Shown one piece after another: positions 34,200-34,260 of a stretch of 64,000 bases of DNA (position 1 is the first letter of the stretch; each line of letters opens with the position of its first letter). Source of the stretch: Escherichia phage vB_EcoM_PTE-Eco15. The stretch lies in the sequence record PQ352352.2; one strand, given 5' to 3'. A program made the position numbers and the translations under genes. The notes under the pieces are model-generated. The model did not search any database and was not told where the DNA came from. It was given only the letters and a program-made list of their open reading frames with translations.

Positions 34200-34202
34200 G
34201 CT

Positions 34203-34232
34203 GTTTACAAGTCCCTCGTGTTGTGTTATAGT
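34203..34232 (+). promoter_or_regulatory. early promoter upstream of alc (-35 GTTTAC, -10 TGtTATAGT)
   Basis: part of a ~55-nt cassette repeated at 47562-47626. Confidence 0.5.
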
Positions 34233-34260
34233 AATCTTACTGACATAACATGAGGACTTT

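Follow-up and report, generated by a model that had tools for sequence, protein, structure and literature searches.

Escherichia phage vB_EcoM_PTE-Eco15 (record PQ352352.2) carries, within the 64,000-nucleotide (nt) stretch analyzed here (the window), two nearly identical copies of a 54-nt promoter-plus-leader cassette, copy 1 in front of alc and copy 2 in front of alt.-3. Why should two promoters 13 kb apart agree almost base for base, from the -35 element down to the Shine-Dalgarno (SD) sequence? The answer we favor is that each copy would be at once an early promoter and a translational switch, since the promoter spacer is predicted to pair with the leader and the SD in any RNA arriving from upstream. 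T4 serves as the model for how phages time the expression of their genes, and to our knowledge its distinction between immediate-early and delayed-early genes has so far been explained by transcription alone.

The two copies lie on the same strand, the second 13,363 nt downstream of the first (GTTTACAAGTCCCTCGTGTTGTGTTATAGTAATCTTACTGACATAACATGAGGA), and share 52 of 54 bases (96%), copy 2 differing by T27C and A32G. The first base of the repeat is the G of the -35 GTTTAC, and its last base is the final A of the SD GAGGA (34252-34256 in copy 1), with unrelated sequence on either side: ...ACTAAGCT (copy 1) versus ...AAAATGTA (copy 2) upstream, and CTTTATGATGG versus ACACAAAATGAAA downstream. No additional copy with up to three mismatches was found in the window, and none of 100 dinucleotide shuffles gave a cassette match, which bears out the first-pass annotation, made from the letters alone, in its claim of a near-identical cassette; its sequence was exact, and its coordinates were a few bases too wide. 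Its proviso that the similarity might be limited to the generic promoter hexamers can be dismissed, since the remaining early promoter-leaders of the window (families D3-D5) resemble one another at 61-84%, against 96% over 54 nt for the twin pair. The window belongs to Tequatrovirus (97-99% identity to many T4-like coliphages; orientation opposite to the T4 record). In the phage collection the 54-mer occurs at 997 places in 499 records, that is, twice per genome, T4 (AF158101) included, and in essentially every member of the genus these are the same two loci, one in the rnlA/alc gap and one before alt.-3. An Rfam search in E-value mode over 30-50 kb of the window returned no match at either copy.

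As had been proposed, the cassette supplies the -35, the -10, the leader, and the SD. Copy 1 matches the sigma-70 consensus at 10 of 12 positions (TTTACA, 17 nt, TATAGT) and copy 2 at 9 of 12 (TACAGT), and TG precedes both -10s. Early promoters of T4 are UP/-35/TGn/-10 promoters (Hinton 2010, PMC2988021), and both copies have their layout: -35 GTTTAC(A), a spacer of 17 ± 1 nt, TGn, and TAnnnT, with genes downstream that are early in T4. As to the A/T-rich UP region, expected at -40 to -60, copy 2 has AAAAAGTTCAAAATGTA directly upstream, and the A/T-rich stretch of copy 1 is further up (-50 to -75), within the rnlA coding sequence. Neither cassette contains the late motif TATAAATA or a MotA box. 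Placed by rule about 7 nt past the -10, transcription would start near A34239 in copy 1 and near 47602 in copy 2, at about base 37 of the cassette. The extra conserved positions of T4 early promoters have been read as polymerase-binding information (PMC2988021), whereas here the spacer also holds an anti-SD that would act at the RNA level.

This second content is what the first-pass annotation lacked when it called so long a repeat unusual: the cassette also encodes a putative SD-masking hairpin, so that nearly every base is doubly constrained. It is a long imperfect inverted repeat, in which bases 7-31 pair with bases 36-57 across a 4-nt loop (bases 32-35) to form about 22 bp. The 5' set consists of the spacer GTCCCTCGTGTTGTG plus the -10 (bases 25-30) and the 3' set of the leader plus GAGGA; by position, the predicted start at base 37 lies between the arms. 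At alc, the bottom three pairs use C34257, T34258, and T34259, alc-specific bases beyond the repeat. The computed free energy is -24.4 kcal/mol at alc and -24.3 kcal/mol at alt.-3 (z of -4.73 and -4.83 against dinucleotide shuffles). When the 17-nt spacer alone is shuffled, z drops to -6.7 and -6.3, and 0 of 500 shuffles reach the native value. In the predicted minimum free energy structure, all five SD bases are paired at alc and four of five at alt.-3. Neither base change that sets the copies apart harms the fold: C27 adds a C-G pair in a bulge, and the change at base 32 falls in the loop. In Tequatrovirus, the sense strand folds at -24.4 kcal/mol and the antisense strand at -15.4 kcal/mol owing to three G.U pairs, an asymmetry that favors a sense RNA over a DNA cruciform.

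The predicted fold would matter only for RNA that contains both arms. Opening the segment from SD to AUG would cost 14.8 (alc) and 13.8 (alt.-3) kcal/mol in read-through RNA, and 3.7 and 2.4 kcal/mol in RNA begun at the predicted start, which is nearly unstructured (about -5 kcal/mol, z about +1). We rely on these opening energies since the mean unpaired probability of the SD failed to separate long from short alt.-3 RNA, because A54 lies in an internal loop and the region can also pair weakly with sequence downstream. We therefore propose, as the reading that we consider more probable than its contrary, that alc and alt.-3 are translated only from RNA of their own promoters. Upstream-initiated RNA would hold both arms and lock the SD in a helix; own-promoter RNA would begin between the arms, about 7 nt past the -10, lack the anti-SD arm, and leave the SD free. 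Synthesis of Alc and Alt.-3 would thus be confined to the first minutes of infection, when their own early promoters are active, and their coding sequences would later still be transcribed, untranslated, as tails of longer RNAs.

Both loci offer such longer RNAs. No terminator was called upstream of either copy, the rnlA-alc gap included, the T4 middle promoters PnrdB and PnrdA lie upstream of rnlA (PMC2988021), and a late-promoter motif precedes alt; read-through RNA is therefore expected at both. It would reach copy 1 by early and middle transcription via rnlA, and copy 2 by middle and late transcription via alt. T4 early promoters are off about 2-5 min after infection (2-3 min; 5 min at 30°C; PMC3014915). 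In T4, alc and alt.-3 are early as RNA and as protein, rnlA is early as RNA and late as protein, alt is late at both levels, and alt.-1/alt.-2 RNA is middle (PMC9697503). These time-resolved data agree with separate control of alc and alt.-3 versus the genes upstream. Ribosomes leaving rnlA should not disturb the arrangement, since its stop codon lies 10 nt ahead of the stem and a terminating ribosome should leave the stem closed.

Comparison of alc upstream regions, drawn from GenBank phages and from IMG/VR, argues that the pairing itself has been kept. In IMG/VR, searches that used single proteins yielded only 5 loci each, and those that used alignments yielded 20 and 17. Directly after GTTTACA comes a spacer arm that opens with an anti-SD (CTCC or CCTC) and is complementary to leader and SD. 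This layout is found in Tequatro-, Dhaka-, Gelderland-, Kagamiyama-, Karam-, Jiaoda-, Braga-, and Winklervirus, in Erwinia phage COW86c, and in two further IMG/VR lineages, so that an anti-SD arm and a 3' arm ending on the SD are kept in at least 10 genera. The arms themselves vary by lineage: CTCATG with CATGAG, CCGTTTAG with ..AAACGG, CTCATTTTGTTG with CAACAAAATGAG, CTCATCAG with CTGATGAG, and CTCTCGTTTTTG with CAAAAACGAGAG. An alignment of 13 lineages with MAFFT misaligned the 3' arms, and column pair counts were dropped in favor of a promoter-anchored duplex analysis and a permutation test of cognate against noncognate pairs. When GTTTAC served as the anchor for the 5' arm, almost all of 12 lineages showed pairing at spacer positions 8-16, and a single position could hold as many as four pair types. 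When every spacer was paired with every leader, the cognate duplex was best in 9 of 10 lineages, and the summed cognate energy of -200.4 kcal/mol was reached by 0 of 100,000 permutations (mean, -113.9; standard deviation, 13.2).

The alt.-3 locus has a different history. In seven outgroups (Dhaka-, Mosig-, Gelderland-, Marfa-, Kanagawa-, and Kagamiyamavirus and Citrobacter phage Ursula), the alt.-3 promoter carries a cassette of its own that has no spacer-SD pairing. A common sequence, GTTTACAACACCACA(A/C)GGATGTGGTA, marks those of Dhaka, Marfa, and EcS1, and Ursula resembles them in having a hairpin inside the spacer. The outgroup flanks are orthologous to those of Tequatrovirus (alt stop codon inside ...AAAATGTAGTTTAC; ...ACATGAGGA-N-ATGAAATC), so that the replacement at alt.-3 covered only the roughly 38 nt lying between GTTTACA and ACATGAGGA. 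The spacer-SD hairpin is ancestral at alc; this, together with the three bottom pairs that use alc-specific bases outside the repeat, makes alc the most likely donor. Most likely, then, an ectopic exchange with GTTTACA and ACATGAGGA as its boundaries brought the alc cassette to alt.-3 of Tequatrovirus, a direction that we infer from these comparisons, and the conversion would have taken place in the ancestor of the genus. T4 recombination needs <50 bp of homology (PMC2839356). In Dhakavirus VR5 (IMGVR_UViG_2706795356; alc locus L025, alt.-3 locus L042), the alc leader equals the alt.-3 leader over 31 nt (CCTTACACAAACATGAGGAGAACATTATGAA), other Dhakaviruses have a different alc leader, and the VR5 hairpin is preserved despite the exchange. 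The comparison points to a second, independent alc/alt.-3 exchange, in the opposite direction.

The suggestion that the repeat would permit shuffling between the loci is thus supported by the different alt.-3 cassette of the seven outgroups and by VR5, which point to a single past replacement at each of alt.-3 and VR5 alc. The deletions or inversions between the copies that were also envisaged have no counterpart in about 500 genomes, which keep both copies in place. Genes 30 and 31 are essential in T4. The interval holds both of them, and a deletion between the copies would be lethal for that reason. That the copies have diverged so little follows from constraint on the promoter, on both arms, and on the SD, and from the youth of the genus (2-5% divergence).

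Several observations weigh against translational gating. Mosigvirus and one other lineage show no spacer-leader pairing at alc. In three lineages, namely L023/L033, Kanagawavirus PEi20 (L066), and Acinetobacter phage AB-Navy4 (L068), a strong promoter-straddling alc hairpin of 13-17 bp spans the -10 and the start site and stops 2-11 nt short of the SD; not every lineage thus masks the SD, and masking cannot be the sole reason for promoter-straddling hairpins. Seven outgroup genera manage without a hairpin at alt.-3, and in Tequatrovirus it could have come along with the copied cassette and simply been tolerated. Most genera have pure Watson-Crick stems, whose sense and antisense strands fold equally well. 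At copy 2, an open reading frame (ORF) resembling alt.-2 (47316-47597) crosses the 5' arm and ends with TAG at the hairpin loop (47595-47597); its translation, if it occurs, would expose the alt.-3 SD through translational coupling. Alt.-1 and Alt.-2 are undetected in T4 proteomics. The start sites, moreover, are placed by rule, and the RNA structure and the translation block are those of a model. Finally, we know of no biological reason why late synthesis of Alc or Alt.-3 would harm the phage. The features on which this argument turns are collected in Table 1.

Table 1. Genes, promoters, and predicted hairpins at the two cassette loci, in window coordinates
Feature	Position	Strand	Remark
Copy 1 cassette (alc locus)	34203..34256	+	-35 to SD, between rnlA stop 34199 and alc ATG 34261/34264
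alc early sigma-70 promoter	34203..34232	+	-35 GTTTAC 34203-34208, 17-nt spacer, TGn 34224-34226, -10 TATAGT 34227-34232
alc hairpin 5' arm (anti-SD GTCCCTC, rest of spacer, -10)	34209..34233	+	Predicted fold; would be missing from RNA started at ~34239
alc hairpin 3' arm (leader + SD)	34238..34259	+	Predicted fold
Copy 2 cassette (alt.-3 locus)	47566..47619	+	-35 47566-47571, -10 TACAGT 47590-47595, SD 47615-47619
Copy 2 hairpin (predicted)	47574..47621	+	5' arm 47574-47596, loop 47597-47600, 3' arm 47601-47621 with SD
alc (inhibitor of host transcription)	34264..34767	+	Served by copy 1
rnlA (RNA ligase 1/tail-fibre attachment)	33075..34199	+	Upstream gene reading into copy 1
alt.-3 (96 aa)	47627..47917	+	Served by copy 2
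alt.-1/alt.-2 remnant of second alt paralogue	47205..47597	+	From self-comparison and annotation; overlaps the start of copy 2
Late-promoter motif TATAAATA before alt	45125..45132	+	Source of late RNA that would enter copy 2
Intrinsic terminator closing the alt to alt.-3 unit	47922..47943	+	Common to convergent gene 54

Among the explanations that compete with the one above, the best placed concerns the near-identity itself, which might be upheld by ongoing gene conversion (concerted evolution) beyond an old copy event and purifying selection. Within-genus variation, surveyed in 15 Tequatrovirus genomes, bears on it from both sides. Minor alleles (A16, C27, and A32/G32) are shared, turning up at alc in some genomes and at alt.-3 in others, no position shows a fixed difference between the two loci, and conversion would find support in the short homology that T4 recombination requires and in the second exchange in VR5. 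Against it, the alleles of the two loci are uncorrelated within genomes (overlaps of 2, 1, and 0 versus about 1, 0.7, and 0.3 expected), and the alt.-3-only haplotype with T11/T15, present in four genomes, has not spread to alc. Ongoing conversion is thus possible but unneeded, given that an ancestral copy event with purifying selection explains the identity, and we regard it as unlikely. The same survey is informative on the fold. Most variants sit in the loop or a bulge or keep or improve pairing: G16A turns G.U into A-U, G40A turns U.G into U-A, T27C brings an extra C-G pair, and one genome has replaced C15-G50 by U15-A50. The alt.-3-only haplotype, in full T11/T15/A16, removes a mismatch from the alt.-3-specific flank GAGGAAC and folds at about -25.7 kcal/mol (-24.1 in T6, which also has G29A). 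A few variants weaken the stem, G29A, which makes the -10 TATAAT, being one.

Alternatively, the hairpin could be real and serve RNA processing, stability, or polymerase pausing for the upstream transcript, for example as an RNase III-type site or as a stem protecting the 3' end of rnlA or alt RNA, so that SD masking would be incidental. The length of the helix, about 22 bp with bulges, would suit such a function, and several lineages, as well as window promoters 24231 and 40745, have promoter-straddling hairpins that leave out the SD. Yet no T-run follows either hairpin and no terminator was called there, and at least 10 genera share a 5' arm that opens with an anti-SD right after GTTTACA and a 3' arm that finishes on the SD, a precision that a mere stability stem does not need; we give this alternative a small chance. 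As for specific candidates, a role of the cassette hairpin as an intrinsic terminator was rejected for want of a T-run, and RegB cleavage was set aside for this phage, whose SD is GAGGA rather than GGAG.

The plainest alternative is that the cassette is an inert, duplicated strong early promoter, its self-complementarity having no role in RNA and its identity reflecting a recent copy event. In a genus only 2-5% divergent, ancestral copies would indeed still be about 96-100% alike, and the other early promoter-leaders of the window (D3-D5) also share modules. This view is hard to reconcile with spacer-leader complementarity far above that of shuffled spacers, with an alc architecture maintained in at least 10 genera through compensating arm changes, or with locus-specific changes at alt.-3 that improve the structure, and it strikes us as improbable. 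Were the hairpin inert, what remained of the finding would be an early promoter, duplicated and well conserved, in a phage that has been studied very thoroughly. That the inverted repeat works as DNA, whether as the operator of a dimeric protein or by forming a cruciform that modulates the promoter, is very improbable, for although the repeat straddles the -10 region and stems outside Tequatrovirus fold equally on both strands, the arms change fully between genera with complementarity kept, the signature of a structure, and the Tequatrovirus stem is far more stable as sense RNA.

Control by a promoter inside a hairpin is familiar from T4, where at e, soc, 49, and I-TevI the promoter lies within a hairpin masking the SD or AUG, read-through RNA is silent, and RNA from the internal promoter is translated (PMC3014915). 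The cassette resembles this class in that both arms would be present only in the long RNA, the internal promoter drops the 5' arm, and translation would be tied to one promoter and one time window; by prediction, its SD is paired in upstream-started RNA and its start falls between the arms. The internal promoters of the class are late (TATAAATA) or middle and their genes are silent early, which is not the case here: the cassette has an early sigma-70 promoter, its anti-SD arm is the spacer between -35 and -10, and its predicted effect is reversed, on early and off later. As modeled, it is thus an early-promoter variant of the known T4 control by promoters inside hairpins, with a predicted effect on translation. 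Neither alc nor alt.-3 nor any early promoter figures in the hairpin list of the 2010 review (PMC3014915), the older T4 literature being outside this scope and an earlier description there being possible.

A second known relative is the PeSL (promoter-early stem-loop) cassette of T4-type phages, which consists of an AT-rich region, a sigma-70-like promoter, an SD, and a start codon, with a terminator stem-loop upstream of the -35, and in which crossovers have been mapped between -10 and SD (PMC2839356, PMC4122927). The cassette described here is likewise a compact, conserved, and recurring module of promoter, SD, and start codon that could offer short homology for recombination, and both the alc-to-alt.-3 copy event and the VR5 leader exchange fit the recombination behavior of PeSL. 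Upstream of the two copies lie the 3' end of rnlA and the alt.-2 remnant. The cassette differs in its stem-loop, which does not precede the -35 as a terminator would, overlaps the promoter and leader, lacks a T-run, and is predicted to mask the SD. Its copies, moreover, lie 13 kb apart and flank essential genes instead of dispensable ORFans.

If early-promoter spacers double as anti-SD arms, translational gating would be written into the promoters themselves. This would explain how some early proteins cease to be made while their RNA persists within longer transcripts, and also the strong conservation of the cassette, in which every base would have two jobs. The cassette would then be a portable unit of regulation, able to pass from gene to gene through short-homology recombination.

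Such gating may reach beyond the twin cassettes. Seven of 11 predicted early promoter-leaders in the window (3750, 24231, 34203, 37179, 40353, 40745, and 47566) have a spacer significantly complementary to their own leader, and in four of them the pairing masks the SD. Tentatively, and with less confidence than we place in gating at alc and alt.-3, we suggest that promoter-coupled translation might be a general rule of T4-type early regions, in which the spacers of many early promoters encode anti-leader or anti-SD sequences that silence read-through RNA. The twin cassette may be the clearest example of such a property, and it would show a module of promoter and translational gate copied to a new gene in one short conversion.

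The five other complementary cassettes (3750-3813, 24231-24292, 37179-37243, 40353-40415, and 40745-40815; spacer-shuffle p ≤ 0.016) are not alike in their predicted folds. That at 3750 masks the SD of a 37-aa ORF (3808-3921) with 15 bp and -23.2 kcal/mol, and that at 40353 (gene 30.8 by synteny) also masks the SD. At 24231 and 40745 (gene 30.7) the hairpins straddle the -10 and end before the SD, and at 37179 (cd.2) the main stem too ends ahead of the SD, and only weak outer pairs extend to it. Promoter-leader parts are reused elsewhere too: the early leaders at 3263-3306, 3770-3813, and 6914-6957, the last before motA at 6965, share the module GTGGTA..CTATCAACTAC(G/T)GAGGA at 68-84% identity. 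A near-identical alt.-3 spacer with an internal mini-hairpin, CACCACA(A/C)GGATGTGG, recurs in Dhakavirus (L041, L043, L045, L047, and L049), Marfa (L070), and EcS1 (L072), and similar spacer-internal hairpins occur in other early promoters, for instance at 3243-3272 of the window.

The surroundings of alt.-3 hold further traces of duplication. The alt.-1/alt.-2 remnant (47205-47597) is, in its N-terminal part, 72-90% identical to alt (45153-45355), and the last codons and stop of the paralogue (TTCAAAATGTAG) survive, out of frame, just before copy 2; the second alt paralogue is present at full length (2058 nt) in AR1, G9062, RB14, Kha5h, PYps32T, and teqhal. PHROGs assigned no function to alt.-3 or to the remaining small early ORFs; PMC11618068 deals with T4 Alt.-3. 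In a 65-aa ORF at 41502 (gene 30.5 by synteny), the opening ~14 codons (41502-41543) resemble those of alt.-3 (47627-47677), with MKFFLGQTVELKGVG versus MKSSLRFLGQELVVEGV at 71% over 34 nt, a likeness that could be due to chance or to a 5' module shared from long ago. Two families of near-identical terminator hairpins, GGGACCGAAAGGTCCC and GGGCTTCGGCCC, are each used three times (47925-47940, 62339-62355, and 63697-63713; 2159-2170, 2375-2386, and 41186-41197). Finally, a minus-strand gene at 17205-18181, in the tail-fibre region by map position, contains five diverged copies of a 68-nt unit at 60-74% identity and irregular spacing.

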